From an uncultured delta proteobacterium (GTDB lineage Bacteria > Desulfobacterota > RBG-13-43-22), in NCBI GenBank assembly GCA_963790475.1, contig CAWBOS010000015.1:1-64000 (forward strand): a stretch of DNA of 64,000 nucleotides, read 5' to 3'. The stretch's first letter is position 1; the number at the start of each line of letters is the position of its first letter. The notes below the pieces were generated by a model, which saw only the letters and a program-made list of their open reading frames with translations, made no database searches and was not told where the DNA came from. Shown here piece after piece: positions 29,838-45,690 of this stretch. Both the position numbers and the translations under genes were made by a program.

Positions 29838-30107
29838 TATTTCGTTACGATATGAAAATATCGAGTAACCTTTCAAACTTAACCCCATCGGTAGGGAATG
29901 GGATATGAAGGGAATTCTGAATATGTTCCGATAGGAAGCCCCCTGGGGTCCATATTATACTCAAGGAGGCTTTCTTTGGTTTTACCATAAAAAGCATAAG
30001 AATGAAGACGCGCTCTTGGCCATGGTCTGAGAGGACGGTAATTCAGGGTGCATCATCGGTCGAATAGTTGGTAGAATAAAAATTTACAGGGTTATGGAGG
30101 CGCTAAA

Positions 30108-30680
30108 ATGCATCTGAAAAAGTTTTCGGTTTACTTGTTGGGCCTGGTTTTCTTCATCATGACCGGTTTGCTCTGTTCAACAATCCACTCGGCAGAGCAA
30201 ATCCCAAAGGGCACAATACTGCCGGACTTTCAAATAAAGGGCCCTGATTCACCCCAAACAAAAGCTTATTTAGGGGTTAATAATGAAAAGCAATTTTATT
30301 TATCGCAAATCAAGGCGAAACTGGTATTGGTAGAATTCATTGACGTTTACTGACCCATTTGCCAAAAAAACGCCCCTGTGGTCAACAGGATATACAATTT
30401 ATTCAAAGAAGACAAAAATCTGGCTAATGACATTAAAGTGATCGCCATAGGAATTGGAACCCAACCTGAAGAAATGCCCCCCTATAAAAAGACCTTTAAA
30501 GTAGAATTTCCATTATTTATTGACCCCAAGAAAGAGATTCAAAAAAAGTTGAAAGTGGAAGCGGTTCCTCTTGCCGTACTGTTGGACAAGAAGGGCAAAG
30601 TCCTCATGAGTCACAGCGGCGTAATAGGGGACTTTGACGCTTTTGTAAGCGAGATCAAAAAAAACTATCAGGCGCGATAA
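30108..30680 (+). CDS. TlpA/ResA-like thioredoxin-fold selenoprotein (UxxC)
   Basis: Two ORF-track pieces are in frame across TGA 30351-30353: EFIDVY-U-PICQKNAP; N-terminal signal/TM, cis-Pro VEAVP; SECIS-like hairpin follows. Confidence 0.85.
30375..30389 (+). promoter_or_regulatory. Candidate bacterial SECIS hairpin
   Basis: CCTGT-GGTCA-ACAGG; G-first loop 26 nt after the UGA. Confidence 0.6.
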
Positions 30681-30752
30681 CCTGACTTTGGTGATTTGAC
30701 CGGATACGAAAAAACTCATTTCTAATTTCTTGCGGATGGTAATGAGAGAAGA

Positions 30753-31676
30753 ATGGCCGTAAACGAAGACATTGCGGATGTCCTGGCCGGAAGCCCGGTT
30801 TTTAAAGAATTACCCAGGGATGCACTGGAGGCCATCGCCGGGGTGGTTCAACCTCTGGTGGTGCCCGACAAAACGGTCATCTTCCGAGAAGGCGATCCTG
30901 GAGATTGCCTCTACATCATCCGTTCAGGGTCGGTGAGGGTCTTCAGGAAAAACGAAGATGGAATGAATTTTGACATTTCCATCAAGGGACCGGGTGAGAC
31001 CGTTGGTGAAATGGCACTCATTACCGGAGAGCCCAGGTCAGCCGACGTCGAGACGCGGGGAGAGACTCACCTGATGGTCCTTTCCAAAGAGCAACTGGAT
31101 CAAATCCTGAGAGACTTTCCCGATATCTCCAAGGTATTCGCCCGGGAGATGCGGCGCTGGCTTTTTACCGATGAAAAGCGTCTCGAGATCCAGGCCCGGG
31201 AAGTACAAAAATCCCAGCGCATGACCTGGTTTGATTTTTTACTGGTTATTGCCGTCAGCGTTATCCTGGCGACGATTTTCAATTACTCCAATCCCAACGG
31301 GATCCGTCTTTTTCCTGAATTCCCCAAAAGGAACTTAGTCCCGTCGGTCGTTCCCACAGTTGCCCTTGAAGAATTACAGCTCGGGCAAACACTCTTTTTA
31401 GATGCCAGGCCGGCCAATTTTTATCAAAAGCGCCACATTAAAGGGGCAATCAATATCCCCCTGAACATTTTCGACATCGTTTACCTGATGACCTTCCCCA
31501 AAGAAGACAAGGAGAAAAAAATCATTATCTATGGTGGCACAGTCAGCCGACTTTATGACTTGGAGCTGGCCGACAAGTTGCTCCTCCGCGGTTACAAGCA
31601 AGTCAAGATCCTGGAAGGGGGCTTGGCGGCCTGGGAGGGAAAGGGGTACCCGATGGAAGGAAGGGTTAAAGAATGA
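30753..31676 (+). CDS. Cyclic-nucleotide-binding domain + TM + rhodanese-like domain protein
   Basis: IFREGDPGD, GEMALITGEPRSA; FLDARP...HIKGAINIP, ILEGGLAAW; active-site Cys replaced (IIIYG). Confidence 0.85.
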   Translation: MAVNEDIADVLAGSPVFKELPRDALEAIAGVVQPLVVPDKTVIFREGDPGDCLYIIRSGSVRVFRKNEDGMNFDISIKGPGETVGEMALITGEPRSADVETRGETHLMVLSKEQLDQILRDFPDISKVFAREMRRWLFTDEKRLEIQAREVQKSQRMTWFDFLLVIAVSVILATIFNYSNPNGIRLFPEFPKRNLVPSVVPTVALEELQLGQTLFLDARPANFYQKRHIKGAINIPLNIFDIVYLMTFPKEDKEKKIIIYGGTVSRLYDLELADKLLLRGYKQVKILEGGLAAWEGKGYPMEGRVKE

Positions 31677-32176
31677 ATGGGGCCTACGTCAAAGGAATCC
31701 TGACCAGCAGGTATTTGGCCTTTGCCTTCAGGCTATTGGTAGGAGGTTCTTTCCTCTATGCCAGCCTAAGCAAGATCCCCTATCCGGCTCAGTTTGCGGA
31801 GGCGACCGCAAATTACCAGCTCGTGCCCTATTGGATGCTCAATCCAGGATCGTTGGTTTTACCGTGGATTGAGTTTGTCTGCGCGCTGTTCCTGATCATC
31901 GGGTTCACCTCCAGGGCTTCCGCGGTCCTTATTGGCTTATTGCTGATCATGTTCGATACCATGGTCGGGATCAACATGTACTGGGGGGCCCCCATCAGTT
32001 GCGGATGTTACGATGCGGTGGGCGAGCCTATCGGCTGGCAGAAAATTATAGAAAACGTCATATTGTTGGGCTTTACTATCCATGTCTTCTTTTTTGACCG
32101 ACTTTTCCTGTTTCGCCGGGGAGGCCGGACCGATCCGGCAAAAATCACTGTTCCTCCTTCTAACGCCTCACGATAG
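31673..32176 (+). CDS. MauE/DoxX-family membrane protein
   Basis: FLYASLSKI, LPWIEF, ISCGCY; overlaps upstream stop (ATGA). Confidence 0.85.
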   Translation: MNGAYVKGILTSRYLAFAFRLLVGGSFLYASLSKIPYPAQFAEATANYQLVPYWMLNPGSLVLPWIEFVCALFLIIGFTSRASAVLIGLLLIMFDTMVGINMYWGAPISCGCYDAVGEPIGWQKIIENVILLGFTIHVFFFDRLFLFRRGGRTDPAKITVPPSNASR

Positions 32177-32185
32177 GTGTCTTAT

Positions 32186-32530
32186 ATGTTAATTAAGCCA
32201 AATTCCTTTTTCCGTTTTCGGCTGTTGTCCTTCGTCCTGCTTTTGATCTTCGTAATCTCCTGTGGATCAAAAGACAAGGTCGCCGGGGTCTACAAGGCAG
32301 AGGGAAAAGACTCGCCTAAACAGGTCGAAACCCTGGTCGAGCTCAAACCCAATGGGGACGGGGCCTGGAAGATAGGCGACGAAGAAGTCCCCTTCTCCTG
32401 GTATATCAAGGGCGGTGAGCTTAGAATCAACACCAAAGGGGGCGGGGTCATCGTCGGCAGCATTGAAGGGGATACCATTCAGATGACCATCCCGGGCACC
32501 AAGAAAATGGCCTTTAAGAAAATCCAGTAA
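32186..32530 (+). CDS. Hypothetical lipoprotein (lipocalin-like beta domain)
   Basis: Hydrophobic leader + VISC lipobox. Confidence 0.7.
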   Translation: MLIKPNSFFRFRLLSFVLLLIFVISCGSKDKVAGVYKAEGKDSPKQVETLVELKPNGDGAWKIGDEEVPFSWYIKGGELRINTKGGGVIVGSIEGDTIQMTIPGTKKMAFKKIQ

Positions 32531-32870
32531 TTACTCCGGGCTTATCGGATTCACCGCATTTTTTTACTGATGACCTGGAGGGCCGCATCCAAAGAGAGGG
32601 GAGCGAGTGCGGATCACTGATCAACCCATCGATGTCGATGACCCGGCACCACCTTTTCTCGAAACGTTTTGGTAGAAACCTGAAAGGCAACCTAAACTCA
32701 CAGGATGAAATCAAGATAAAAGTACTGATGGCGGAGCATGTGAAATTAACAATGAGTGAGGCTTCGCCTATTTCTGATAAAGGGGAAAAGAAACCAAGAA
32801 TTTCTCTCTGATACAAAATCCATTATAGGGGTGGCCGCCAAACCCTGTCATTAGGGGGGGGACATCTACC

Positions 32871-35800
32871 ATGAACTGTCCGAAATGCAGGAGCGAGAAT
32901 TCTGAAGGGACAAAGTTCTGCCGCGAATGCGGCGCCCGGTTGGAAAGGGTTTGTCCCCAGTGCCACGCCGCCAGTCCTCCCCACTTCAAATTCTGCCGAG
33001 AGTGCGGGCATCCCTTGTCCGCATCTTCGGAACCACCTATCCCAAAATCCCTTTCGGAAAAACAGCCGACCCCCTCCCCTCCCCCCCAAGAGCTAACCGA
33101 GAAAATCTTGGCCCAGAGGGGGCGGATCGAGGGCGAGCGCCGTCAGGTGACGGTGATGTTCTGCGATCTGGTGGGTTCTACCGCCCAGACCGAAAAGCTG
33201 GGAGACGAGAAAGCCTTTGCCCTCATCGATGAGCTCTTCGGCATCCTGACACAGCAGGTCCACAGATATGAGGGGACGGTCCAGGAGTTTCGGGGAGATG
33301 GCATTATGGCCCTTTTCGGGGCCCCCCTTGCTCTGGAAAACACTGCCCAGCGGGCCGTTAGCACCTCTCTGGCCATCCACCAGGAGGTAAACCGGTTCAA
33401 CAACCGGTCCCTTGAGGGATCCCGAAGCCCGGCCATCCGCATGCGGATCGGAATCCATACCGGTCCGGTCATTCTGGGCAGCATCGGCAGCGATCTGCGT
33501 CTGGAGTTCCAGGTCATCGGTGATACGGTAAACCTGGCCGCCCGGATGGAAGCGCTTGCAGAACCGGGAACCACCTATCTGACTAAAGAGACCTACCGAC
33601 TGGCTAAGGGCCTGTTTCATTTCCAGCCCGTGGGGGAAAAAGTAGTTAAAGGTAAGGAAAACCCGATTTCCGTCTACAAGGTTCTTTCCGCCAAAGAAGA
33701 CGTGTACCGCCCTCGTTTGGGTTCTGAGCGGCAGATTTACTCCCGGATAGTCGGAAGGGACAGCGAGCTGAATAAGCTCGAGCTTCAGGTGATGAAAGCG
33801 GTCAACGATCAGGGATCAGTCGTTAATATTATCGGCGAAGCTGGTATTGGAAAATCGCGGCTCCTGGCAGAGTTGAAAAATCGGGAGGTAATGAAAAGGG
33901 TAACCCTCATGGAGGGAAGGGCGATTTCCATAGGCAAAAATCTGAGCTTTCACCCGATTACTGATCTTTTGAAACAATGGGCGGGCATCAGGAGTGACGA
34001 TGGCGAGGCCAAGACTTTTGACAAACTCCAGGCTGCCATAAAAAGGGTCTTTCGCGAAGAGTATAGTGAGGTGCTTCCTTTTGTGGCCATCCTGATGGGG
34101 ATGAAGCTGCCCGGAATCCATGCCCAGAGGGCAGAAGGGATAGAGGGCGAAGCCCTGAATAATCTGATTCTAAAAAGTGTAAGGGATCTGTTGGTCAAGG
34201 CGACGGAACTGACTCCTCTGGTGATGGTGATCGATGACTTGCATTGGGCTGACACCAGTTCCATCGAGCTCATGGAATCCCTTTTTCGCCTGGCAGAGAC
34301 ACACAAGATTCTTTTCATCAATCTTTTTCGGCCCGGCTACCAGGAAACCGGAGACCGCTTAGTTGAATCCCTCAAAGACCGCCAGGTGAACTACTATGTC
34401 GAAATAGTGCTGGAGCCCCTGCCGGAAAAAATGAGTGAAGCCCTCATCGGCAACATGTTGAACTTCAAAGAGCTTCAACATGCCTGGGTCACCGGCATCG
34501 TAGAGAGAACTGGAGGCAATCCCTTCTTTATTGAAGAAGTCGTTCGCTCCCTGATCGATGAACAAGCGCTTTTGCCGAAGGGAGGCGCATTTCATTTGAC
34601 CGATAAAGCGGCAACCATCTCTATTCCCAACACTATTGAAGAGTTACTGATGACCCGGATCGACCGGTTGGAGGAGCAGACCCGTGACCTGGTGAAGGAC
34701 GCATCGGTAATCGGAAGGTCTTTCTTCTATCGCATCCTGGCCAAGGTGGCCTCCGAAATCGAAAATATCGATGCCCGGCTCACCTATCTGCAGGAAATTC
34801 AGCTCCTCCGGGAACGATTGAGAATGGGCGAGTTAGAGTACCTCTTCAAGCATGCCCTGGCCCAGGAGGTGGCTTACGAATCCATTCTGCCCCTGAAAAG
34901 AAAGGAGCTTCATCTAGCGGTAGCCCAAGCCATAGAAAAGGTCTTTGAGGAAAGACTCCATGAATTCTACGGGATGCTCGCCTATCATTATTGCCAGGCC
35001 GAAAGTCTGGAGGAGGCCGAGGAGTGCCTGATCAAGGCTGGGGAGGAGGCCCTGAGATCAGCCGCCTCAGATGAGGCCCTGCATTATTATGAGGAAGCCC
35101 TCCAGCTCTATCTGAAAAAGTCCGGCAAAGACGCCCATCCCGAAAAGCTGGCCATGTTGGAGAAGAATATTGCCCTGGCTCTGTATAACCGGGGGCAGCA
35201 TCAAGAGGCCGTTAATCATTTTGAAAAGGCCCTGGATTATTACTGGCGGAAATTACCGAAAAGTGCGGTTTTTGTGACAGTCAAACTCTTTTCGGCGTTA
35301 AGTCACTTCTTCTTAGCCTTGTACCTGCCAACCATGAAGTTCAAGAAGACACCGTCAGAGCGGGATATCGAAATCGTCGATCTATTTTTTAAGAAGATCA
35401 ATTCGATCTCATTAACCGATGCTAAGAGATCTTTCATTGAGTATTTCCACTTGTTCAGGTTTATCAGTCTCTTCAACCTTCGTAAATTCAGAGATGGTTA
35501 TGGAATCTTCTCCATGTCCAGTGCTTTGTTTGCCTACTCCGGAATTTCATTTGCTTTGAGCAGAAAAGTCTTAGATTCCATTAGAAACAAAGTCGACAAA
35601 AACGACCCTATAAACCAGATAATGTTTGGGATTTGTGAAACAGTGTATCTTTTTTTGGGAGGGGACTGGAAAAATTTAAAGGACTATGATGGTGAACTGG
35701 TAGAACAGAATTGCAGGATTGGGGAAATTTATAATGTTTCACAATACTTGTTCTGGAATGGGCTTGGTGCGATCTGCCGAGGTTATTTCGACAAAGCCGA

Positions 35801-36551
35801 GGAGATTGCGAATAGATTGCATGATCTCTACGAAGTCTATGGGAATGTACTTTCCGAAATTTTTAGATACGAAGTCAGTACCATGCTGCTGATCGAGTCC
35901 GGTAAACTTGATGAGGCAAAAGTTGAATCCGAAAAGGGAGTTGCCTTCGGGCAAAAAACAAATTCAATTTATTGGTGGGAATTGCATTTATGCCAAGCCT
36001 ATATACACATCTCGAGGGGTACAATCGAAAAGGCACAGGAATACCTTGAGCAGGCCGACAGAATTAGGGTTCAAACAGAAACAGCCCCATTGCAATTGTC
36101 ATGGCATTATCAAATTCAATTGGAATTTGACCTTTACCACTTAAGGGAATCAACTAAGAGCGGAAATCGAACAGAAATTGATAAATTCCGAAGAGCAACC
36201 CTCAAGTCTATCAGGGCACTCGAAAAGGTTGCACGAAAAGTAGCCTATCATCGAACCGATTCATACAGGCTTACCGGAGCCTATTACTGGATGATCCATA
36301 AACACGAAAAGGCTCTCGGATGGTGGCAGAAAGGGGTTCAGGAAGGGCAGCGCCTGGGAGCGCGCCCTCAACTGGCCCGGCTGTACTTCGAGGTAGGCAA
36401 GTGCCTGATCGAGGAAAAGGGTAAATATTCAAAACTGGCTGGCCTCGAGGGAAAGGAATATCTGGAAAAGGCCAGGGCATTGTTTGAAGAAATGAAAATA
36501 GAATCCTACCTGGAAGAAATAGATCGAGTTGTCGAGATGAGGAGCCTTTGA
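32871..36551 (+). CDS. Class III adenylate/guanylate cyclase with double zinc ribbon, STAND-type AAA ATPase and TPR repeats
   Basis: CPKC/CREC/CPQC/CREC; FCDLVGST, GDGIMALFG, GDTVNLAARME; GEAGIGKSRL, IDDLHWAD, GGNPFF, FKHAL; helical C-terminus. Confidence 0.92.
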   Translation: MNCPKCRSENSEGTKFCRECGARLERVCPQCHAASPPHFKFCRECGHPLSASSEPPIPKSLSEKQPTPSPPPQELTEKILAQRGRIEGERRQVTVMFCDLVGSTAQTEKLGDEKAFALIDELFGILTQQVHRYEGTVQEFRGDGIMALFGAPLALENTAQRAVSTSLAIHQEVNRFNNRSLEGSRSPAIRMRIGIHTGPVILGSIGSDLRLEFQVIGDTVNLAARMEALAEPGTTYLTKETYRLAKGLFHFQPVGEKVVKGKENPISVYKVLSAKEDVYRPRLGSERQIYSRIVGRDSELNKLELQVMKAVNDQGSVVNIIGEAGIGKSRLLAELKNREVMKRVTLMEGRAISIGKNLSFHPITDLLKQWAGIRSDDGEAKTFDKLQAAIKRVFREEYSEVLPFVAILMGMKLPGIHAQRAEGIEGEALNNLILKSVRDLLVKATELTPLVMVIDDLHWADTSSIELMESLFRLAETHKILFINLFRPGYQETGDRLVESLKDRQVNYYVEIVLEPLPEKMSEALIGNMLNFKELQHAWVTGIVERTGGNPFFIEEVVRSLIDEQALLPKGGAFHLTDKAATISIPNTIEELLMTRIDRLEEQTRDLVKDASVIGRSFFYRILAKVASEIENIDARLTYLQEIQLLRERLRMGELEYLFKHALAQEVAYESILPLKRKELHLAVAQAIEKVFEERLHEFYGMLAYHYCQAESLEEAEECLIKAGEEALRSAASDEALHYYEEALQLYLKKSGKDAHPEKLAMLEKNIALALYNRGQHQEAVNHFEKALDYYWRKLPKSAVFVTVKLFSALSHFFLALYLPTMKFKKTPSERDIEIVDLFFKKINSISLTDAKRSFIEYFHLFRFISLFNLRKFRDGYGIFSMSSALFAYSGISFALSRKVLDSIRNKVDKNDPINQIMFGICETVYLFLGGDWKNLKDYDGELVEQNCRIGEIYNVSQYLFWNGLGAICRGYFDKAEEIANRLHDLYEVYGNVLSEIFRYEVSTMLLIESGKLDEAKVESEKGVAFGQKTNSIYWWELHLCQAYIHISRGTIEKAQEYLEQADRIRVQTETAPLQLSWHYQIQLEFDLYHLRESTKSGNRTEIDKFRRATLKSIRALEKVARKVAYHRTDSYRLTGAYYWMIHKHEKALGWWQKGVQEGQRLGARPQLARLYFEVGKCLIEEKGKYSKLAGLEGKEYLEKARALFEEMKIESYLEEIDRVVEMRSL

Positions 36552-37543
36552 TGGAACGCAGGATCGCTGATTTACGGTCATTCTGCTCCCGGGTCGATTT
36601 TGGCCCTGTAGACCTCTCCCGAGAAGAAGAAGAATTCCGTGGGGAGCTGAACCGGGAAATGCTCTCGTTCTGTCAATGCCTGCCGAAATCTATGCGAACG
36701 AAGGCAGCCCTGTTCTTGATGGAATACCTGCACGCCTCCTTTAGGGAGGGCCTTAATTTTGTCAACTACTTCTACGCCCCGGCCTGGTCGATCCTTTTTT
36801 GGCTTCATCGATCCTGTCCTAATAACAGGAAACTGACCCCAAAATATTTAAAAGATGCAAATACCGGCCATACCATGGCCATGTTCCTTCATGCCTTCGA
36901 CGACCATCTTACTGATGGTCAATTGCCTGTTTCAAACCTAGCTCTGCTAATGAGAAGCCACGCCTGGATGATCATGAACCAGGCCTTTGAAAGATTAGCC
37001 AAGGGAGTTGGGAATGGAGAATCAATTGTAATCGATTTTATCAACGATTACTATTCCAGTATCGATTCATCTGACCAAAAGGGATCCCTCGACAGCTACT
37101 GCAAGTTTTTCAGAAAACAGATGGCGACATGGTTGATTGCTCCTGTACTTATCGCAAAAAAGATCAATTCCAATGAAGAGTTTGTCCGCTCTATTGAGAC
37201 AGCCTATTCCTCTTTCGGCATTGCCTATAGGCTTCTCGATGATCTACAGGATATTGAAAAAGACATGATAAAAGGAGTCCATTCTTCCCCATATACTTGT
37301 CTTCCCGCCAAGATGAGGAAAGTTTGGAACCACGTAAAGGAAGAAAAAGCGGATGGAAATGGCGACTATGCCAGGCAGATTCTGAACTACATCCAGAAAA
37401 ATGGGATAATCGATAGAATAAGGAAAAGGATATGCGATGAGCTGGAAACAGCCACATCCAGGGCGGATTCTTGCAAGATGTCAGGCTTCGCTGATGAGCT
37501 TCGTTGTCTTTTGAGACCATTGAAGAATGGGGAGAATCACTGA
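36551..37543 (+). CDS. Class 1 isoprenoid-synthase-fold protein (polyprenyl/prenyltransferase-like)
   Basis: Two Asp-rich motifs HAFDDHLTD and GIAYRLLDDLQD, all-helical; TGATG coupling to the cyclase. Confidence 0.75.
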   Translation: MERRIADLRSFCSRVDFGPVDLSREEEEFRGELNREMLSFCQCLPKSMRTKAALFLMEYLHASFREGLNFVNYFYAPAWSILFWLHRSCPNNRKLTPKYLKDANTGHTMAMFLHAFDDHLTDGQLPVSNLALLMRSHAWMIMNQAFERLAKGVGNGESIVIDFINDYYSSIDSSDQKGSLDSYCKFFRKQMATWLIAPVLIAKKINSNEEFVRSIETAYSSFGIAYRLLDDLQDIEKDMIKGVHSSPYTCLPAKMRKVWNHVKEEKADGNGDYARQILNYIQKNGIIDRIRKRICDELETATSRADSCKMSGFADELRCLLRPLKNGENH

Positions 37544-38706
37544 TGAAAGGGACCACTTCAGATGAAATCTGTCGAGGAGTGGAGCAAGAAAAACTCTCTA
37601 TCGAAGTGACCACGCGATGCAACGGCTCCTGCCTGCATTGTTTTGCCCGCTCCAATAACTCCAGAAGCTCTACCCTCCCTGTCGATTTGGTCAAAGAGAT
37701 CATAGTCGAGGGATATGATGCCGGATACCGTCACCTCCATATTACAGGGGGTGAGCCCCTGCTTTGGGAAGGCTTGTTCGAGACCCTGGACTATGGCCTT
37801 GGTATCGGATTCGAAACAATCTTCATGAATACCAATGGAACACTCATAACGGAAGAGATCAGCAAGAGACTCGCCGACTACAGCACCTTTTTTTCGATGT
37901 CGATCAGCCTGGATGGGCCCGAAGCCTTGCATGACCGCATACGAGGAAAGGGATCGCACCAAAAAACGATGCTGGGCATTGAGAGGGCTCTCAATAGGGG
38001 AATTGATCTTACCATCTTCACAACGGTTACAAAAAGGCTATTACCCGAGTTGCCGCTATTCGTCGGTGACCTGTTCAAGCGATTTCCCAATATTGACTAT
38101 TTGATTCTCATCCAGCTTATCAAAACGACGAATGTCCCCTTTGCCCTGTCGGAAGAACTTCTTAACCCGGAAGACTTCGTGCGACTGGTGCGAATGGTTG
38201 CCCTTCTGGATGTCGGCGGTTTCCGCGCCATTGTGAAGAAGAACCCTTTGGCCAACGTGGTTTCCAAGATGCTGGAGATGCCTTGGATCCCTCGGGTCCC
38301 TCCCCTTTACCGCGAGGGATGCCTGATTGTCCTGGCCAACAGGCATGTCAGTGTGGTGCACTCCAACAGAAATAGCCTCGGCCGATACACGTCCGGTATG
38401 ATTCGAAAAGTCCTGGACTCCGATGAATATCGCAAAACCGTTGCGCCGGATAATACGACCTGTCCATGGTGCAGTTATGTCCAAATATGTGAAGAAAATG
38501 GAATGATTCGGCCCCCCCATGGGTACGGAGACATTTACGGCGATTCGCCTTTTTGCCGCCGGGTATTGGATAGTCTTGCACAGGATCAACCGATTTTCGG
38601 GGCTAACTTAGGCGGACGCGTACCCTTATCAGCTGATAAGGCGTATACCAAGAAGAGCCGGAACCGGTCACTGACTAAAACGCTAAAAGAAAGGAGGGAT
38701 ATATAA
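37543..38706 (+). CDS. Radical SAM protein with C-terminal Cys cluster
   Basis: CNGSCLHC, TGGEPLL, TNGTLI, ISLDG..HDRIRG; CPWC..IC...FC; TGATG coupling. Confidence 0.9.
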   Translation: MKGTTSDEICRGVEQEKLSIEVTTRCNGSCLHCFARSNNSRSSTLPVDLVKEIIVEGYDAGYRHLHITGGEPLLWEGLFETLDYGLGIGFETIFMNTNGTLITEEISKRLADYSTFFSMSISLDGPEALHDRIRGKGSHQKTMLGIERALNRGIDLTIFTTVTKRLLPELPLFVGDLFKRFPNIDYLILIQLIKTTNVPFALSEELLNPEDFVRLVRMVALLDVGGFRAIVKKNPLANVVSKMLEMPWIPRVPPLYREGCLIVLANRHVSVVHSNRNSLGRYTSGMIRKVLDSDEYRKTVAPDNTTCPWCSYVQICEENGMIRPPHGYGDIYGDSPFCRRVLDSLAQDQPIFGANLGGRVPLSADKAYTKKSRNRSLTKTLKERRDI

Positions 38707-38865
38707 AGCCAAGAATAGAGAACAAAACTCTCAACGGTTTTGGCGAAGAGCAAGAGGGCTTTCAGATCGAAAAGAACCCGGTATGAAAAATGGCTCTACG
38801 AGGATCTTCGGCAGGAGACAACCTCATGATTTCAAACATTCAACACAAAAGATAAGGAGGAAAAG

Positions 38866-39108
38866 ATGACAACCAATAGAAAAAGAAGTGATTTCATTAA
38901 CTTCATCATGGATGCTGAAAAAAACCAAAAAATGCTAGACGAGTTTCTGAAAATAAAAGAGGCTAAAAAACTTTACAATTTCTTCAAAAGAAATAACTAC
39001 ATAGACATACCTTTCAATGATTGCCAAGATATACTGAAGGCTATGAGATCTTGGATTGGAGGGGGAGGGAGGGGACCTATCTGTCCCCCTGGAGCAAAGA
39101 TTTACTAA
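38866..39108 (+). CDS. Putative RiPP precursor peptide (Nif11-like helical leader, Gly/Pro/Cys/Trp/Tyr core)
   Basis: AAGGAGG RBS; 80 aa between two radical SAM genes; DFINFIMDAEKNQKMLDEF leader; core ...SWIGGGGRGPICPPGAKIY. Confidence 0.65.
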   Translation: MTTNRKRSDFINFIMDAEKNQKMLDEFLKIKEAKKLYNFFKRNNYIDIPFNDCQDILKAMRSWIGGGGRGPICPPGAKIY

Positions 39109-39364
39109 TATGAGAACAATGTGTAACTAAGACTCTGGGGCGTGAATATCTGTTCGCTTATCCAAGCTGCCTTGAGCTCGAATTTCGATCAATTGTCTGA
39201 ATTTGGATGAGTTAAAGAGCGGGAGTGAGAAACGAAGGGCGCTATTCGTTTGCCTGGCAGTGGTTGCTTGCAATGACTCGTAGTAATGTGGTCTGTCGGT
39301 GGGGTTCCTCAAACCCCACCGACTCACTTTGTAAATCGATTCGACCTAGAAGAAGAGGCTATTT

Positions 39365-40726
39365 GTGATTAAAATCCTCAAGTCAGATTTCAATTCTGTT
39401 GCATTCAGCACGGAATCATTGACCTTGTACCCGTTGCCGGCTCGGATTGGTGAATCTCTTATGGATAACGAGGAGTATACTTCAGAACATTTACCGGAGA
39501 CATTTAAGGATGATTACATCAATGACAATCCGGTGAAAATCAATCGGCTCCTATTATTAGTGGCACAAACCTGTAATATCAAATGCTCTTATTGTATTGC
39601 CGAAGCTTACATGGGACCATATTCTGTAGATCAAATTATGAGCCCGACTACCGCCTGTGTCGCGATTGAGAAAGTGTTCAAAAGCGCACCGGATGTTTCG
39701 GAGGTTATTTTTTTTGGAGGAGAGCCTTTGATGGGTTTTGCTACCATCAGGAAAGCGGTACAAGCCAGCGAAGAATACTGTGGGGCGCATCAAATTCGGA
39801 AGCCCTCTTTTTCTATCACCACCAATGGAACATTGATAAACCAAGAAATGATCGAATTTTTTAAGGAACATAATTTCTCGGTGACTATTAGTTTGGATGG
39901 CCCTCCGCACATTAATGATAAGCAACGCCGGTTTCCGTCAGGAAAAGGCACTTATGACTTGGTCAAGAAGAAAATTGATCTGCTTTGCAGTTCGGGCTTA
40001 GAGTTCGGAATAGAAGCCGTATTCACGGACCGCCATAGGGAATATAAAGAGACCATTGAATCGATCTACAAGTTTCTTCTTAGATTGGGTGCCCGGGAAA
40101 TTAGCCTGACCCCTCCTATAGGGGGATCACCGGACGAATGGATTAATCGGGATTTGTTGACCGATTTGGAACAAAGCTATGTTTCTTCGACCGAGAAGAT
40201 TATGGAAAGTTGGTTGAGCGACTCTCCGATTAGAATGCCTTATTGGATCGACATGTTAAAAACGCTCGTATCCCGGGAGGGCAAAACCCATTTCTGCGAT
40301 GCCGGTTACGGGGGGATTGCAGTGGACTGCACCGGGAGAGTATTTCCCTGCCACGCCGTTATGGGCAACAGCCTTTATATGGGAAGCGTCTACGACAAAG
40401 AGTTCCCCGGCGAGGACTTCAGAAGGGTAGCGCTGCGGATGCGCCAGACTTCAAAGGACAGCTTTCCCAAGTGTCGCGGATGTTGGGCCAAGAATCTGTG
40501 CTCTCCATGCTACGGTGATACTTTTGTTAAATCCGGAACTCTAAGTGCACCCCGAGAAAGTATATGTATAATAATTCGCTCGGTTGCCAAAGCTATATTG
40601 CTTAAGGTGGCGGAATTCATGTCTGATGAAGAGAAATGGAAAAGGTTCACTGAGGTTTTTAATCTTTCACAGTTTTATTTCGATATGGACCACAAAGATT
40701 TCAATACAGCCCATCATTCAAAATAG
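39365..40726 (+). CDS. Radical SAM/SPASM peptide maturase (anSME/CteB-like)
   Basis: CNIKCSYC, FFGGEPL, TTNGTL, SLDGP; SPASM CDAG...GRVFPC...CRGC...CSPC...C. Confidence 0.9.
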   Translation: MIKILKSDFNSVAFSTESLTLYPLPARIGESLMDNEEYTSEHLPETFKDDYINDNPVKINRLLLLVAQTCNIKCSYCIAEAYMGPYSVDQIMSPTTACVAIEKVFKSAPDVSEVIFFGGEPLMGFATIRKAVQASEEYCGAHQIRKPSFSITTNGTLINQEMIEFFKEHNFSVTISLDGPPHINDKQRRFPSGKGTYDLVKKKIDLLCSSGLEFGIEAVFTDRHREYKETIESIYKFLLRLGAREISLTPPIGGSPDEWINRDLLTDLEQSYVSSTEKIMESWLSDSPIRMPYWIDMLKTLVSREGKTHFCDAGYGGIAVDCTGRVFPCHAVMGNSLYMGSVYDKEFPGEDFRRVALRMRQTSKDSFPKCRGCWAKNLCSPCYGDTFVKSGTLSAPRESICIIIRSVAKAILLKVAEFMSDEEKWKRFTEVFNLSQFYFDMDHKDFNTAHHSK

Positions 40727-40736
40727 GAGATCAATC

Positions 40737-42476
40737 ATGCCAAAAATAACGCACGTGCAATTGCCCGGTAGCTATCGAAGTAAAGACCCCACCGCCTTTC
40801 GGGTTGGTGATGTCAACCCCAAAGAAAAGATCATTGTCACCATCGGGCTTAAAGGCCCGAAACTCCCTGGTCCAGGAGAACACATCGGCCATACCTTTAC
40901 GCCCGATCAGATAGCCGAGAAATTCAGCGTAGAGAAGACTGATGCTGTTAAGGTAACAGAAACACTAAAGAATTATGGCCTAAAAGTTTTAGAAATCTCA
41001 CTGGTGACGCGCAGCATGCGCCTCATCGGAACGGCAGAAAACATGGAAGCCGCTTTCAAACCTGACTGGGCGGTCATGAGCTCATGTCGCCAGCCACGAT
41101 ATCGTGGTCGACAGGGAGTACTCTACATACCTGAAAAGCTTAAGGGTATTGTGACTGGGGTTTTCGGACTCGATCAGCGGCAAATGGCACATCGGAGGAC
41201 GGGTCTAAAGGGCCCGACAAATATATCGTCTGTGCTAGAAAGCCCGTTTACACCGAAAGATATCATAAGGCAATATAATTTCCCATCAGGGGATGGTTTA
41301 GGCGAAACTATTGCGATCGCGGCGTTTGCTGGCGGCTATTTCGCCGAAGACATGGATGCCTATTTCGTTAGAGTCTTCAGAAGTCAAGGGCAAAATATAC
41401 CCACCCCTGGTGTTAAAACAATTTCGGTAAATGCTCCAGCCTACACACTTCAGGAGATTCTTTCGCTCCCTATTCCGGAGCAAATAATAAACCAAATTAG
41501 CTATAGTTTCGAAGTGATGACGGACACCGAACTAATCGCAGGATTATGTCCAAAGGCGAACATTGTAGTCTACTTTTCCACATTTGACGAAGGTGGATGG
41601 ATCGGTCTCCTCGACAGGATTTTCAACGACGCAAAGCAATCCCATCGCGTCCAAAAGCCAATCCCGGTCGCGCTTTCAATCAGTTGGGGTTTGCCTGAGG
41701 ATTATTGGACAAAGAATCAAAGGGACCAAATCAACGATCAATTAAATAGATTAAGCCTGCTGGGTATCACCACCTGTGTCGCCTCAGGGGACGACGGTTC
41801 GAGAGGTTACATCCAGGATGGCCAAGCCCATGTCGATTTTCCAAGCTCTAGTCCCTTCGTGTTGAGTGTTGGCGGAACCATGCTGAAGGCTAATATTAGA
41901 AATAATCCGATAATCGGTAATCCGATAATCCGTGTCCAGGAGGTTGTTTGGTGGGAAACATGGACCGATCCACTCCGCATCTCCTATGTATCTACGACGG
42001 GGGGCGGAGTTAGTACGAAAAATCTACGCCCGAATTGGCAGGATGGTCCGCTGGTTACCCCACTCAGGCAACAACCCCTCAATCCGCTAGCCTTTGACGG
42101 TCGTGTGGTGCCCGATGTTGCTGCTCTGGCCGGAAAACCATATTATGACTTGATTTTCCTTGGGTTACCGGTGAAGACCGGGGCGACAAGTGCCTCGGCA
42201 CCCGTCTGGGCCGCCCTCATCGCACGAATCAATGCCAAACTCCCACAAAATAGGCAAGGGCGATTTCTGACTCCTCTGCTCTACCAGAAACTGCCACCGC
42301 CAGACGGCCGGGTTGTTGGTCAGGTCTCGTGCCGGGATATTACCCAAGGTGATAATACACCTGACTACCCCCCTCCTAATGGCTACAAGGCGGGGATAGG
42401 GTTCGATAAGGTTACAGGGTGGGGAGTCCCGGATGGGATGAAACTTCTCGATTGTTTGAATCAGGTTATACCTTAG
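40737..42476 (+). CDS. S53 sedolisin/kumamolisin-family serine-carboxyl peptidase with prodomain, no signal peptide
   Basis: EVMTD (Glu/Asp), SISWG, ASGDDG, VPDVAA, ATSASAP (Ser), GFDKVTGWG; start after AGGAGA. Confidence 0.9.
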   Translation: MPKITHVQLPGSYRSKDPTAFRVGDVNPKEKIIVTIGLKGPKLPGPGEHIGHTFTPDQIAEKFSVEKTDAVKVTETLKNYGLKVLEISLVTRSMRLIGTAENMEAAFKPDWAVMSSCRQPRYRGRQGVLYIPEKLKGIVTGVFGLDQRQMAHRRTGLKGPTNISSVLESPFTPKDIIRQYNFPSGDGLGETIAIAAFAGGYFAEDMDAYFVRVFRSQGQNIPTPGVKTISVNAPAYTLQEILSLPIPEQIINQISYSFEVMTDTELIAGLCPKANIVVYFSTFDEGGWIGLLDRIFNDAKQSHRVQKPIPVALSISWGLPEDYWTKNQRDQINDQLNRLSLLGITTCVASGDDGSRGYIQDGQAHVDFPSSSPFVLSVGGTMLKANIRNNPIIGNPIIRVQEVVWWETWTDPLRISYVSTTGGGVSTKNLRPNWQDGPLVTPLRQQPLNPLAFDGRVVPDVAALAGKPYYDLIFLGLPVKTGATSASAPVWAALIARINAKLPQNRQGRFLTPLLYQKLPPPDGRVVGQVSCRDITQGDNTPDYPPPNGYKAGIGFDKVTGWGVPDGMKLLDCLNQVIP

Positions 42477-42623
42477 TCAGCACTCCATGACTTGTATCTA
42501 AGAGCGTTCCCGAAAAGTAAATCCTGCTTTTAACTTTATTTTAATAAAAGGATTTTGGCCAGGCAAGGGCGCTGACCACCAACACGGCTTGACCGGAAGA
42601 GATATGCTTAGTCATAAGGATTT

Positions 42624-43826
42624 GTGATGCCTTCGCGAGGATTAAAAACGACAGCCGGTTTATTGAATTGCCCGATCATGATTGTTGGGGCGGGACCTGC
42701 CGGGATTTCCACCTGGCTGCATCTTCAAAAGGAGGCCCCGCAATTGGCCCGCTTTTCCCTTGTCATCGAAAAGGCCATTTTCCCACGAGACAAATTGTGT
42801 GGGGGCGGTTTATGCTCTTGGGTTGCCGATGCGCTGGCCTACCTGGGGGTGGACCTTGATATACCATCCTTGTCTGTTTCTGATCTGGAGTTCAGATTTG
42901 GGAAAGAGATCGATCTTATTCACCAGGATAATTATTTCCAAGTCGTCCAGCGTGTTGATTTTGATCAGGCCCTGGCAAGAGCCGCGGTTAAGCGAGGCCT
43001 TGACCTGCATGAAGACGAAATACTTGTCGATATTCTTCGGACCCGGAACAAGCTGGTTGTAACAACCAATAAAGGGAAATATGCCGTGCAAGCCCTCGTT
43101 GGTGCGGACGGAGCTTTCAGCTTAGTTCGCAAGAAGATGATCTCATCCCGGAAACATCATCTTGCGCGTACACTTCAGGTATTCGCTCCCGCTGACTCCC
43201 GATATGATCACGAATTCACGGAAAAAAAGACGGTTGTCGATCTCACGCCCATCAAAAAGGGTTTGCAGGGCTACGTTTGGCACGTGCCTTGTCTGAAGGA
43301 TAAGACCCCTTCCATCGCCCATGGCATAGTTGATTTCCGGGTTTGGCCTGATAGACCAAAGGCAGACATGAAGAAGATATTCGGCCAAGAATTGGAAAGC
43401 AGAAATATTCATCAGGACCCTAAGGCCTGGTCCAGTCACCCCATTCCTTGGTATTCGGAGGAGGACATCCTGTCACAGCCCAATGTGATCCTGGTAGGAG
43501 ACGCCGCAGGAGTTGAGCCGGCCTTTGGAGGAGGTATCCACCTCTCACTGGCCTACGGGGAGGTTGCCGCTAAAGCTATTATCGATGCCTTCCAAGCCGA
43601 TGACTTATCTTTCCAGGATTACACCCAAAGGATACAGTCCCATCAAGTTGGGCAGCATATATCCAAATGCACCCGTATAGCCCGGGCAATGTATGGTGGC
43701 AAGATGAATCCTTTGGATGGGGCACGGGAGGTTTTTGCTCCCGAATATGATTCCTCCGCTATGATGCGTGAATTGCTGTCCAGGTACTTGGAACTCCATC
43801 CCCAATCGTCTTCAGACCCTAAATGA
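42624..43826 (+). CDS. FAD-dependent oxidoreductase, geranylgeranyl reductase family
   Basis: IVGAGPAG, EKAIFPRDKLCGGGL, RVDFD, GADG, LVGDAAG, GGGI. Confidence 0.85.
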   Translation: MMPSRGLKTTAGLLNCPIMIVGAGPAGISTWLHLQKEAPQLARFSLVIEKAIFPRDKLCGGGLCSWVADALAYLGVDLDIPSLSVSDLEFRFGKEIDLIHQDNYFQVVQRVDFDQALARAAVKRGLDLHEDEILVDILRTRNKLVVTTNKGKYAVQALVGADGAFSLVRKKMISSRKHHLARTLQVFAPADSRYDHEFTEKKTVVDLTPIKKGLQGYVWHVPCLKDKTPSIAHGIVDFRVWPDRPKADMKKIFGQELESRNIHQDPKAWSSHPIPWYSEEDILSQPNVILVGDAAGVEPAFGGGIHLSLAYGEVAAKAIIDAFQADDLSFQDYTQRIQSHQVGQHISKCTRIARAMYGGKMNPLDGAREVFAPEYDSSAMMRELLSRYLELHPQSSSDPK

Positions 43827-43972
43827 TTCTGTAACGGAATCGGTGAACCTATACAGATCACCCGAGGTCAGAAAATACGCCGCCAGTTATCAAACAATTA
43901 CTTCTTTCCAACCAATACCCGGAAACTAAAGAAAAAGTATTTGATCCCGGTTACATTTTTCACCGCCAATTA

Positions 43973-44750
43973 TCAGGGCCACCTTCTGGTTAAATCAAGA
44001 TAGTAGCTCGTGGTCTCAGTTGACTGGTCCTTATACTTAATCGTTATCTCGATCGTGAATTGTCCCCTTCCTGATGATTCCAGGGCGAATTGGTCGTCAG
44101 GATTTGACCGCACCTGCAAGGGATTGGGAAACGTCGGACGTAATAGATACTGGACTTCGGCTATTTGATTGAGGACTTGAAAAGGTTCATCCACAAAAAC
44201 ACGCCAGTTGTAATAGTTCCTGCCCTGAATTGCAGATATGCTTCTGGCATAATTGTTGATCCTGACCTTGATTTTCCTTTCAGCCGCGAAGGCGCTTCTT
44301 GTCAGGCTCAGGGTAAGCAGAGATTTCGCGGCCTGGTTTTGAGGGAGGACGGTGGCAATCAATGATTGTCGTTGATAATTGGGATAAAAGGGAAGCACCT
44401 TCCACAGATTTCCATTCTTATCCGTCAGGGTCATCCGGAAAGCTTTGGTCATGCCATTAAAAGGAATTTTAGCCGTCCACCAGCCGATGATCTGTCCGGC
44501 CGTCAGTTCAACTGGTCCGGACCGCGTCTCGGATTTCCCTGAGCTTGATTGCTCATTATATTCATAAGTACCCCTTTGGAGTTCGAAGGTCTCCACTTTC
44601 ACATTTGCAGGTGGTTCGAGATTGACAAAAATGTCCAGTGGTAACGATGGTGATTGGGTTTTGGCCCATATGATCACCACGCCAACAACAGCGGCGGCAA
44701 ATCCCCCCCACCGCCCAATTACGAAATTTCTTGTCCGTTTTTATGACGCC
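43973..44750 (-). pseudogene. Membrane-anchored pYEATS-domain protein, 5'-truncated and frameshifted at a G tract
   Basis: WRVFVDE...QIAEVQYLLRPTFPNP...FALESSGRGQF is a prokaryotic YEATS pattern; N-terminal TM (FAAAVVGVVIIW) reached by a shift near 44705. Confidence 0.6.
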
Positions 44751-44883
44751 GACACATAATTTCCGCCTCATCCGGTGAAAAGAGTTCTTTCAAAATTTTT
44801 AATTCAACCCCGCTTTTGGTCTTTGGGAACCCCTGGGGAAACATATCGAGTCTTTCTCCGAGCCTCTCATAAATGTCGGTCAT
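44719..44883 (-). pseudogene. N-terminal fragment of a 4Fe-4S binding protein (paralog of 13810-14904)
   Basis: MTDIYERLGERLDMFPQGFPKTKSGVELKILKELFSPDEAE matches MSSEAYSRLANVLDTLPNGFPPTESGVEIKLLKKVFESDEAE, then breaks off. Confidence 0.75.
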
Positions 44884-44919
44884 GACTTTCTCTCCTTCCG
44901 GCTTTACGCCCATCCAGTA

Positions 44920-45690
44920 TTAAATTTCCCAATCGTATTTGTTGAAGGTGTAGGGCAAATAGGTTTCGGCATCGACCTCGGCGACGACTTCCCCGGCTTT
45001 CATGCGAATTTCCATCCCTTTGGTATAGGCGGCCATGACGACCTGTTTGATAGGGATTTCGTAAAGGAAGTCATACTTCGATTTGCCCAGGGTCACCTTG
45101 CCTTCTCCTATCTCAATTTCTCCCCAGTCGATGTCGTTGTATTGCTTTAACAAACGGGGGTTGTAATCGAATCCGCTGAATGTCGGGGAGATGAAGCCTT
45201 TATAAAGATAATGAGGCTCCGGAGGCGGCATCGGGCCGGGGAATGGCCCGGTGAGTTTTGCCTCTATTTGTAATATGGGGAATCCTCTTCGGACACAGGT
45301 TCCCGTGACCTTATTGCCCTTTCTCTTGACCACAATCGTTTCGGCGATCTTCTTGGGATAACCGAAAACCTCCCTTCCAGCGATCATGGCCATGTCGTTC
45401 GTGACCGGCATGGACAAGCAGTATCTCCCCAACACACCCTCGTATTGGGCGGCCAGGAACAAGGCCGCTTCGTTATAGGTCACGCCAAAATTGGTTCGAT
45501 GGAATTCAGCAACGTAGGCCATACCCATGGGAGTGGACGCCGGTTGAAGCGGCGGGGGCAGGACCTTCTTGACGACCTTCGGATCGGTCTCAAAAACCGC
45601 CATGACCATGGTCGCGTCACCCAGGATGAAACCCGAGGTAAAGCTTTTACCCCAATTCCTAATTTTCTTTTGGGATTGAACCAGTTCCAT
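44920..45690 (-). CDS. Acetoacetate decarboxylase family protein
   Basis: LPPPL, YNEAA, AGREVFGYPKK (Schiff-base Lys). Confidence 0.88.
   Translation of the reverse strand: MELVQSQKKIRNWGKSFTSGFILGDATMVMAVFETDPKVVKKVLPPPLQPASTPMGMAYVAEFHRTNFGVTYNEAALFLAAQYEGVLGRYCLSMPVTNDMAMIAGREVFGYPKKIAETIVVKRKGNKVTGTCVRRGFPILQIEAKLTGPFPGPMPPPEPHYLYKGFISPTFSGFDYNPRLLKQYNDIDWGEIEIGEGKVTLGKSKYDFLYEIPIKQVVMAAYTKGMEIRMKAGEVVAEVDAETYLPYTFNKYDWEI

Follow-up and report, generated by a model that had tools for sequence, protein, structure and literature searches.

The stretch of DNA analysed here (the window, 64,000 nucleotides of contig CAWBOS010000015.1 from an uncultured delta proteobacterium) carries at positions 32871-43826 seven co-directional open reading frames (ORFs) on the + strand, as read from the ORFs of the window, and sequence comparison indicates that they are one example of a system for peptide modification and signalling that is widespread and has no name. 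The recurring core of this system appears to consist of an enzyme with an isoprenoid-synthase-like fold (g2), a radical S-adenosylmethionine (SAM) enzyme (rsam1), often fused to g2, and a small peptide ending in Tyr, with signalling genes flanking the core. The core gene order was found again in dozens of genomes, to all appearances far beyond chance. We give about even chances to a reading as a pheromone system of the ComQXPA kind, in which the peptide is modified at its C-terminal Tyr. The core genes of the window, and the cyclase gene in front of them, are the following:

32871..36551, + strand: cyclase, a STAND nucleotide cyclase of 1226 aa with a double zinc ribbon, a class III cyclase domain, an AAA_16 NTPase domain and a TPR sensor region
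36551..37543, + strand: g2, 330 aa, class-I isoprenoid-enzyme fold, unnamed family; putative peptide prenyltransferase
37543..38706, + strand: rsam1, a radical SAM enzyme of 387 aa with one C-terminal auxiliary-cluster motif
38866..39108, + strand: precursor peptide, 80 aa, with a conserved leader and a variable tail ...W-x9-C-P-P-G-A-K-I-Y

The distribution of the system was determined by scanning one genome per species with a profile of the g2 alignment A1 (see below), which gave 79 distinct loci (L004-L082): 36 in Desulfobacterota or ‘delta’ genomes, 34 in Spirochaetota, 5 in Cyanobacteria and 4 in other groups. Taxon labels were taken from the record titles, and the Desulfobacterota group includes three metagenome-assembled genomes (MAGs) titled only Proteobacteria or Pseudomonadota. 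Neighbouring genes were identified by BLASTP of the window proteins against all stop-to-stop ORFs of the 79 loci. An earlier reading of the window from its letters alone (the original prediction) had taken the seven genes as one unit; this was borne out for the cyclase, g2, rsam1 and the peptide, which recur together, but not for the SPASM, sedolisin and flavoprotein genes, which are optional. Since homologues of the SPASM enzyme and of the sedolisin were each found in 1 of the 79 loci, and of the flavoprotein in 9 of the 36 Desulfobacterota loci, the seven genes are best described as a conserved core plus optional modules. The g2 gene was present in 4 of 21 genomes of the window's order and in 1 of 13 other genomes of its genus, a patchy spread like that of clusters for accessory signalling or secondary metabolites. 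Sediment and groundwater metagenomes commonly contain the system.

The peptide was searched for with jackhmmer, starting from the window peptide, against all ORFs of at least 30 aa in the 79 loci. This search gave 60 small ORFs, and under relaxed settings another three were found directly behind rsam1 (L008, L015, and L020); with 63 related peptides in 58 of the 79 loci, the small ORF pointed out by the original prediction proved to be conserved. A Tyr was the last residue in 61 of the 63 peptides, in the window peptide, in its single relative in the protein database (P0002, 65% identity) and in 6/6 peptides on five metagenome contigs found with the three closest peptides as queries. As a control, 172 of the 5522 ORFs of 60-110 aa in the same loci (3.1%) ended in Tyr.

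The window peptide, P0002 and 57 of the 60 small ORFs were aligned (alignment A2), omitting L023 and L036, which are duplicates of L021 and L034, and the long exception L032. The members of this family, of about 70-100 aa, shared a conserved helical leader (F-[IL]-D-F-I-x-D ... L ... W/F-F ... G-Y ... D/E-C-x-K-L), behind which come some 20 variable residues. The two residues before the terminal Tyr were variable, and the Tyr itself was the sole nearly invariant column. The original prediction had pointed to the Trp of ComX that ComQ prenylates, and the terminal Tyr had gone unseen; a Trp was kept only in the three closest peptides, and the conserved target is this Tyr and not a ComX-like Trp. 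The peptide had also been called Nif11-like. Nif11 models were indeed the commonest family among its relatives in both libraries, yet they matched only 4 of 59 at E < 1 (best E values 0.016 for Pfam PF07862 and 0.0012 for TIGR03798), and the window peptide itself matched no Pfam or NCBIfam family; the label, and with it a Nif11-like leader, is therefore weakly supported. The GGGG of the window peptide was considered as a double-Gly cleavage site and rejected, as it does not occur in the two closest relatives. Both the peptide and g2 are single copy in the window's genome. Two family peptide genes with differing tails, both ending in Tyr, were found in each of the loci L011, L048, L049, L073, L080, and L091.

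The enzyme g2 had no match in Pfam (E ≤ 0.01) or NCBIfam, and lies outside the polyprenyl_synt/ComQ sequence family; among 10 family members scanned, only P0092 weakly matched PF00348. An exhaustive HMMER search over 1.84 billion representatives gave 251 homologues at E ≤ 1e-3, 217 at ≤ 1e-10 and 112 at ≤ 1e-30, and a word-indexed search gave 389 g2-family proteins at E ≤ 1e-10. Most of the 120 matches listed were called ‘hypothetical protein’ or had no name, and two NCBI entries among them were called ‘class 1 isoprenoid biosynthesis enzyme’. Alignment A1 was made from the window g2 and 62 full-length matches picked from 150 listed (63 sequences). Residues H114, H119, D122, Y167, R227, D230, D231, D234, and D238 were invariant in it, D117 and D118 were conserved at 90% or more, and these positions fall in two Asp-rich motifs, LHxxDDHLxD and WRLLDDxxDxxxD.

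An AlphaFold2 model of g2 computed on A1 reached a pLDDT of 94.9 and a pTM of 0.93. When this model was compared with the PDB by Foldseek, 113 matches at E ≤ 0.001 were obtained, and almost all of the top matches listed were trans-isoprenyl diphosphate synthases (trans-IPPS; 4dhd, 1wy0, 9imr, and others), with a TM score of about 0.65, 10-14% identity and E values from 3.7e-5. The A1 profile matched 14 PDB sequences at E < 1, of which 13 were trans-prenyltransferases (best E 0.0068), and the best match displayed was aligned over the second Asp-rich motif of g2. The neighbours of g2 in the ESM Atlas were unnamed or ‘terpene synthase’, one of them with PF00348 on 47% of its members. Because the structure model, the PDB profile and the ESM Atlas agree, the isoprenoid-synthase fold that the original prediction had read in the second gene was confirmed: g2 is modelled with a trans-IPPS fold, and the Asp-rich metal site of that fold is present, with DDxxxD and DDxxDxxxD conserved in the 63 sequences. 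The reading of the cluster as one for a RiPP, a peptide made on ribosomes and modified after translation, was also upheld.

Gene fusions were found among ten long g2-family members that were scanned. Five of these consisted of g2 followed by a radical SAM domain (at least five representatives are thus fused), one of FAD_binding_3 followed by g2, and two carried a VAO-type FAD_binding_4 domain. The C-terminal half of fusion P0006 was 49% identical to rsam1, and the N-terminal half of fusion P0050 matched the window flavoprotein (25% identity over 339 residues, E 7e-11), including K-x-C-G-G and GDAAG. These fusions link g2, rsam1 and the flavoprotein to one another. A prediction of the complex of g2 and the peptide gave a median score of 0.67, against 0.57 for a control in which g2 was replaced, and is evidence neither way.

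A different use of the same enzymes has to be considered at this point, namely that g2, rsam1 and the flavoprotein make or modify a non-peptide isoprenoid (a lipid or a quinone) and that the small ORF is a regulatory or chaperone peptide. The fold of g2 is that of chain-elongating enzymes (IPPS), and other genes of isoprenoid or lipid type were found with the core: a type-1 isopentenyl diphosphate (IPP) isomerase in 6 of the 34 spirochaete loci, above both NCBIfam cut-offs (160.4 against 127 and 112.4 against 105.8), the geranylgeranyl (GG) reductase-family protein, and a B12-binding radical SAM enzyme resembling the lipid/hopanoid-type HpnJ/HpnR, and BchE, which clustering placed in 30 loci (23 Desulfobacterota and 7 Spirochaetota) and which is absent from the window cluster. 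Nevertheless, a peptide that is not a substrate would hardly be expected to carry a near-invariant C-terminal Tyr behind its RiPP-type leader, the peptide gene lies directly after rsam1 in 30 of the 36 Desulfobacterota loci, and in the window's lineage the cluster also includes SPASM maturases and proteases. This alternative is held to be improbable. If the peptide is the substrate, g2 would bind an allylic isoprenoid diphosphate through its two Asp-rich motifs, ionise it and alkylate the C-terminal Tyr; this step is proposed because both motifs are kept and an IPP isomerase was recruited in some loci.

The first radical SAM enzyme, rsam1, matched Radical_SAM of Pfam with 84.5 bits. Its best NCBIfam matches were AhbD, AhbC, NirJ and MftC, all far under their cut-offs (for MftC, TIGR03962, E 1.5e-19 and 70.4 bits against a cut-off of 265), and the nearest solved structure was the decarboxylase BlsE (E 9.6e-9). 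These best family matches, apart from MftC, remove or decarboxylate carboxyalkyl groups. In an alignment of the window rsam1 with those of 49 loci (a score of 200 bits or more, with no fewer than 330 residues aligned), C26/C30/C33 and C307/C310/C316/C338 were invariant in 50/50 sequences; they correspond to the SAM cluster and to one auxiliary motif CX2CX5C...C, with no full SPASM domain. An rsam1 was found in 62 of the 79 loci: 32/36 in Desulfobacterota, 28/34 in Spirochaetota, 0/5 in Cyanobacteria and 2/4 in the other group, fused in these last two. The rsam1 homologue of the closest relative (L004, 10948-12055) is split into two overlapping ORFs, which is a frameshift or a MAG sequencing error.

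The enzyme rsam1 may act on the same Tyr as g2, either by an MftC-type oxidative decarboxylation or by a radical reaction that closes a C-C bond onto the prenyl group. Since the peptide must end with this Tyr, a carboxylate-dependent chemistry is the likeliest for rsam1. In cyanobacterial-type loci, made up of g2, the peptide, an unnamed 305-aa protein and a VAO-type FAD_binding_4 oxidase (5 of the 9 loci of Cyanobacteria and the other group), this oxidase takes the place of rsam1. VAO-type oxidases belong to a family known for oxidation at the benzylic carbon in para-substituted phenols. A shared target of rsam1 and the VAO-type oxidase at the C-beta of Tyr would fit.

A peptide with a decisive C-terminal Tyr is also part of the mycofactocin pathway, in which MftA ends in -Val-Tyr (Gly-Val-Tyr), MftC is a radical SAM/SPASM enzyme and MftB is a RiPP recognition element protein. 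The two systems resemble each other in the key C-terminal Tyr and in a radical SAM enzyme with one or more auxiliary clusters, MftC being among the better matches of rsam1. They differ in that rsam1 has a single auxiliary Cys motif and scores 70.4 bits where 265 are needed, in that positions -1 and -2 are variable, and in that no MftB/D/E/F-like genes are present here, an isoprenoid-fold enzyme being found instead.

This resemblance raises the alternative of a scaffold peptide, as in mycofactocin or pyrroloquinoline quinone: the terminal Tyr, prenylated and oxidised, would be cut off as a redox cofactor or metabolite, and the sensors would regulate the operon only. Such a route would account for a peptide in which only the last residue is fixed and the preceding ones vary freely, for the MftC match, for proteases adjoining the peptide gene in the window, L004, L090, and L005, and for further modifying enzymes, namely UbiE/CMAS-type methyltransferases in 6 of the 34 spirochaete loci and the VAO-type oxidases in 5 of the 9 cyanobacterial-type and other loci. 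However, unsupervised clustering of the neighbouring genes found no conserved partner dehydrogenases, and two unrelated sensor families are tightly linked to the core, the spirochaete peptide sharing a transcription unit with its kinase. The conserved Cys and Trp before the Tyr in the SPASM sub-lineage (see below) also suggest that a longer piece of the tail matters. Hence, the scaffold route is considered unlikely.

The sensors flanking the core differed between phyla. The window cyclase matched Guanylate_cyc (PF00211, 96.8 bits), AAA_16 (82.9), DZR, TPR_12 and TPR_MalT in Pfam; its cyclase domain, AAA_16 domain and TPR repeats make it both a class III cyclase and a STAND NTPase. A homologue directly precedes g2 in 31 of the 36 Desulfobacterota loci and in no locus of Spirochaetota, Cyanobacteria or the other group; within Desulfobacterota the cyclase is a constant neighbour. 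In four of the five Desulfobacterota loci lacking it the upstream sequence was too short, and in L043 there was room, with none there; L043 carries nearby an AAA_16-GAF-kinase protein instead, which was also found in L015 and in the cyanobacterial L055. The cyclase residues were compared in the window and 26 homologues (bits ≥ 400, alignment starting by residue 60). At the positions that we take, from the class III motifs, to be the metal, Asn and Arg positions, the metal Asp residues were kept in 25/27 and 27/27, the Asn in 27/27 and the Arg in 25/27, and the Walker A Lys was kept in 27/27.

In Spirochaetota, a 7TMR-DISM hybrid kinase was found in 19 of 34 loci, and in 0/36 Desulfobacterota. 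This hybrid sensor, of about 1080 aa, contains 7TMR-DISM_7TM, HisKA, HATPase, receiver and SpoIIE phosphatase domains, and the peptide gene is placed differently than in Desulfobacterota: in 15 of the 21 peptide-bearing spirochaete loci it directly precedes the sensor gene in the same direction (gap -3 to 151 nt). Two or three unrelated signal-transduction architectures thus appear to be tied to the same g2-peptide core across phyla.

The window cyclase was also seen to be a mosaic. Its residues 121-360 are 88-92% identical to those of the same-genus L005 and 33-53% to those of L004; beyond residue 720 or so, the identity to L004 is on average equal to or higher than that to L005 (58-95% and 60-87%, respectively, per 60-residue window). 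The sensor half of the cyclase seems to travel with the downstream biosynthetic genes, a behavior that fits a pairing of ligand and sensor.

The three remaining genes of the window cluster are the optional modules:

39365..40726, + strand: radical SAM/SPASM maturase, 453 aa, a lineage-specific accessory gene; probable thioether former on Cys73
40737..42476, + strand: sedolisin (S53), 579 aa, cytoplasmic, with a pro-domain, lineage-specific accessory; probable leader or fragment protease
42627..43826 (start GTG 42624 or ATG 42627), + strand: flavoprotein, 399 aa, FAD-binding, geranylgeranyl-reductase family; prenyl reductase or aromatic hydroxylase

The maturase contained Radical_SAM and SPASM domains (Pfam). 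It scored below the cut-offs of all the thioether models (198.5 against 518.7 for TIGR04064, 187.6 against 340 for PapB and 152.6 against 425 for the CteB-like model) and of QhpD (169.8 against 453), and its nearest structure was CteB (5wgg, E 4.7e-27). The sedolisin had a PF09286 Pro-kuma_activ domain (38 bits against a cut-off of 23.5), placing it in family S53, and matched pro-kumamolisin 1t1e over its full length (E 6.4e-46); the Ser, Glu and Asp picked out by eye are presumably the catalytic residues. Homologues of the SPASM enzyme were found in one of the 79 genome loci (L004, the closest relative) and on three of the five metagenome contigs (L090, L092, and L093), and those of the sedolisin in L004 and L090 only (1/79 genome loci and 1/5 contigs). 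In L090 the order was peptide, SPASM enzyme (74% identity), sedolisin (55%) and flavoprotein (81%), and in L092 and L093 it was g2, rsam1, peptide and SPASM enzyme. The same-genus L005 has an S8 subtilase of 819 aa at the position of the sedolisin, within the order cyclase, g2, rsam1, peptide, subtilase, B12-binding radical SAM enzyme and flavoprotein.

All five SPASM loci (the window, L004, L090, L092, and L093) had one Cys in the tail of the peptide, 4-6 residues before the terminal Tyr (CPPGAKIY, CPSGQKVY, CVGGQKDY, CVGNSYEY and CPDKGY). About seven tails from other loci also carry a Cys near the end, and a SPASM gene was not detected in those loci. The SPASM enzyme accordingly goes with the Cys-containing tail, in keeping with its kinship to thioether-forming enzymes; in this sub-lineage it may form a thioether ring with Cys73, which lies six residues upstream of the Tyr, and the cytoplasmic sedolisin would remove the leader.

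The second radical SAM enzyme of the window is a relative of CteB/SCIFF, the PapB ranthipeptide enzyme and the Nif11-type maturase TIGR04064, all below the equivalog cut-offs, and the succession of a SPASM enzyme, a subtilisin-clan serine protease and a flavoprotein resembles qhpD/E/G at the superfamily level only (QhpG scored 36 against 240 with the flavoprotein). Here, in contrast to the thioether and QHNDH systems, there is a single core Cys, with no Cys-rich or Asp/Glu acceptor pattern, and the SPASM trio is an add-on to a different core system. A Cys-Trp cofactor like cysteine tryptophylquinone, by analogy with QHNDH, was considered and is kept as a lead; the Trp and Cys of the tail were conserved only in the SPASM sub-lineage, and the flavoprotein also occurs where tails have neither.

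The RiPP-type enzymes, including this thioether-type SPASM relative of CteB/PapB, would also be expected if the product were an antimicrobial or membrane-active lipopeptide whose production alone is regulated by the STAND cyclase or the kinase. A patchy distribution suits such a product, as does the gene of an exporter of the MFS_3 family (‘transmembrane secretion effector’, EntS-like) at 28251-29489 on the - strand, 3.4 kb upstream of the cyclase. The absence of a transporter had been claimed originally; it holds for the seven genes, and not for this wider neighbourhood, and the exporter has no counterpart in related loci. No immunity or transporter gene was conserved with the system, and its most constant neighbours are signalling genes. 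An antimicrobial function is accordingly given little credence.

The flavoprotein matched TIGR02032 (E 6.2e-35) with 121.3 bits, below the cut-off of 158.8, and more weakly MenJ, QhpG (E 3.7e-9), GoxB/LodB and halogenases; halogenases were also its nearest structures by sequence (E about 3e-6). The GxGPAG motif, K56, C58, G60, Y216, W218 and GDAAG were invariant in 13 homologues, and its motifs K-x-C-G-G and Y-x-W-x-[FV]-P are, we assume, those of geranylgeranyl reductases. Strong homologues were found in the nine Desulfobacterota loci mentioned above, weak ones in 5 Spirochaetota, and none in Cyanobacteria or the other group. The description as GG-reductase-like agrees with the best family match, although the score is below the cut-off and the fold is not distinct from that of hydroxylases and halogenases. 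From the model, this protein may be either a prenyl reductase or an aromatic hydroxylase, and the fold search separates neither of them from halogenases; it would either saturate the prenyl group or hydroxylate the ring.

If the peptide is modified at its Tyr in this way, the lipophilic product would be a pheromone-like signal that the co-transcribed STAND protein binds at its TPR sensor. Oligomers formed on binding would bring the cyclase domains together in pairs, so that cAMP or cGMP is made. The logic of this scheme is closest to that of ComQXPA of Bacillus, in which ComQ prenylates a Trp of ComX and ComP is the kinase receptor. In both, the neighbours of an IPPS-fold enzyme are a sensor and a small precursor that varies in its C-terminal part and keeps one aromatic residue fixed. 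By this analogy different protein families would be serving a similar purpose, and the correspondence fails on sequence family, acceptor residue and receptor type: g2 is not of the polyprenyl_synt/ComQ family, the fixed residue is a terminal Tyr and not a sub-terminal Trp, and the sensor of the window is a cytoplasmic STAND cyclase and not a membrane histidine kinase, the 7TMR-DISM hybrid kinase being found in spirochaete loci only (19/34). Furthermore, a radical SAM enzyme is part of the core here, and the hosts are Desulfobacterota, Spirochaetota and some Cyanobacteria.

The scheme can be stated more fully, as a tentative proposal that we think may well be wrong in this complete form: a new RiPP class and Gram-negative counterpart of ComQXPA, making from a Nif11-like precursor a prenylated, probably decarboxylated and membrane-permeant Tyr pheromone, which would be read by STAND cyclases in Desulfobacterota and by 7TM hybrid kinases in Spirochaetota, with add-ons (thioether ring, methylation, reduction) setting the specificity.

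Several observations weigh against a prenylated Tyr pheromone. Prenylation, crosslinking, reduction and sensing by the cyclase are chemistry and function that we infer. Variable tails with one fixed residue fit a small-molecule scaffold equally well as a pheromone; two peptides, those of L010 (...VYAKL) and L032, do not end in Tyr, and 21 of the 79 loci, some on short contigs and some not, gave no peptide. As to the enzymes, g2 has no match to polyprenyl_synt of Pfam and is 10-14% identical to solved IPPS enzymes, and its fold could serve another purpose; rsam1 stays far under all curated cut-offs, its family matches coming from the core that radical SAM enzymes share, and the radical SAM step is not universal, because the cyanobacterial-type loci have g2 and the peptide without rsam1. 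The purine-specifying positions of the cyclase are non-canonical and variable. The AlphaFold2 model of the flavoprotein is mediocre (pLDDT 73), and its fold neighbours are a mixture of FixC, pyrrole and phenol halogenases, aromatic hydroxylases and the GG reductase 3oz2 of Thermoplasma (best TM 0.66).

Other known systems are related to parts of the cluster. TIGR03903 (TOMM kinase/cyclase fusion, the best NCBIfam match of the window cyclase with 311 bits, E 1.8e-92, cut-off 705) and TIGR04510 (E 0.001) also have a cyclase, a STAND NTPase and repeats beside RiPP genes; here there is no kinase domain, and the neighbours are neither TOMM genes nor those of the TIGR04510 system. KabA and DabA are reportedly terpene-synthase-fold amino-acid prenyltransferases whose acceptors are small molecules or amino acids in free form. 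Ord1 (PDB 9v4g), another prenyltransferase, was among the fold matches of g2. These enzymes share with the reading proposed for g2 a class-I isoprenoid fold that alkylates a non-isoprenoid acceptor, and differ in having no peptide leader, radical SAM partner or sensor. The nearest item in the literature is the Trp prenylation of StheX by the ComQ homologue StheQ, as given in a 2026 preprint (10.64898/2026.08.29.745113). The second Asp-rich motif of ComQ enzymes is described there as degenerate. In g2 this motif is kept in full.

Neither g2 nor the peptide falls under a model of Pfam or NCBIfam (June 2026), and no publication on this combination of genes was found in full-text literature, a search whose scope left subscription journals, supplements and the antiSMASH/RODEO rule sets outside. 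The original prediction that no described RiPP class has this combination is in agreement with both results, and there is a fair chance that the system is a new RiPP class. If true, the system would represent a new peptide-modifying family, in which an isoprenoid-fold enzyme has a radical SAM enzyme as its partner or fusion domain, a new precursor family recognised by its terminal Tyr, a rare instance of cells signalling to each other by peptides among anaerobic Gram-negative phyla, and a defined ligand for a STAND adenylate/guanylate cyclase. To our knowledge, a defined ligand is still missing for this large class of cyclases. Even without a signal role, the strict terminal Tyr and its IPPS-fold partner predict new chemistry.

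Within the window, the gene calls of the original prediction were reproduced in detail. All seven ORFs were present at the positions given, and the proposed translational coupling corresponds to two TGATG stop/start overlaps, at 36549-36553 (cyclase/g2) and 37541-37545 (g2/rsam1). The 80-aa ORF between the two radical SAM genes, said to have a strong ribosome-binding site, is preceded by AAGGAGGAAAAG, with AAGGAGG as that site. The SPASM gene stops with the TAG at 40724-40726, and the ATG of the sedolisin, preceded by GGAG, follows 10 nt on at 40737; as predicted, the N-terminus of the sedolisin has no hydrophobic signal stretch. The domain assignments also agreed (Guanylate_cyc, AAA_16 and TPR; Radical_SAM twice, the second time with SPASM; Pro-kuma_activ; and the TIGR02032 family, below its cut-off). 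The spacer of about 256 nt between the peptide and SPASM genes was unremarkable as a whole (RNA fold z = -1.58 against shuffles). A perfect 12-bp GC-rich hairpin lies within it at 39289-39330 (+), with no T-run behind. It might affect mRNA stability or act in attenuation, like the elements commonly found behind RiPP precursor genes. An Rfam scan of 29500-45000 gave zero matches, and a promoter/terminator scan gave counts no higher than in shuffles.

Upstream of the cyclase, one further gene may be related to the signalling function:

30753..31676, + strand: cyclic nucleotide (cNMP)-binding/membrane/rhodanese protein, with CRP-type cNMP-binding and rhodanese matches

Its homologues were found beside the L005 cluster, on the other side (74% identity), and in L019 (35%), and in none of the remaining loci. 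It is possible, by this weak link, that the protein reads the product of the cyclase. Together with a MauE/DoxX membrane protein (31673-32176, +; PF07291, 86 bits), this gene sits between the cluster and a secreted thioredoxin/AhpC-like ORF (30108-30680, +) with an in-frame TGA at codon 82, which as selenocysteine would give a U-P-I-C redox motif; the two-piece arrangement split by TGA was also found in L005 (68-74% identical), and 30108-30680 likely encodes a selenoprotein. In L005, the thioredoxin-like, cNMP-binding/rhodanese and MauE genes, which sit upstream of the cluster in the window, come after the flavoprotein.

Directly downstream of the cluster, a prokaryotic YEATS-domain protein of 235 aa is encoded at 43973-44680 on the - strand. 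This protein, the MFS exporter and a small lipoprotein were considered as parts of the system and rejected, as they had no homologues in the 79 loci. Further upstream, mutS appears split within 24300-26923 (-) into an ORF with domains II-IV (25417-26538) and another with part of domain III to domain V (24300-25424), which overlap by 8 nt; this split is either a frameshift or an assembly error.

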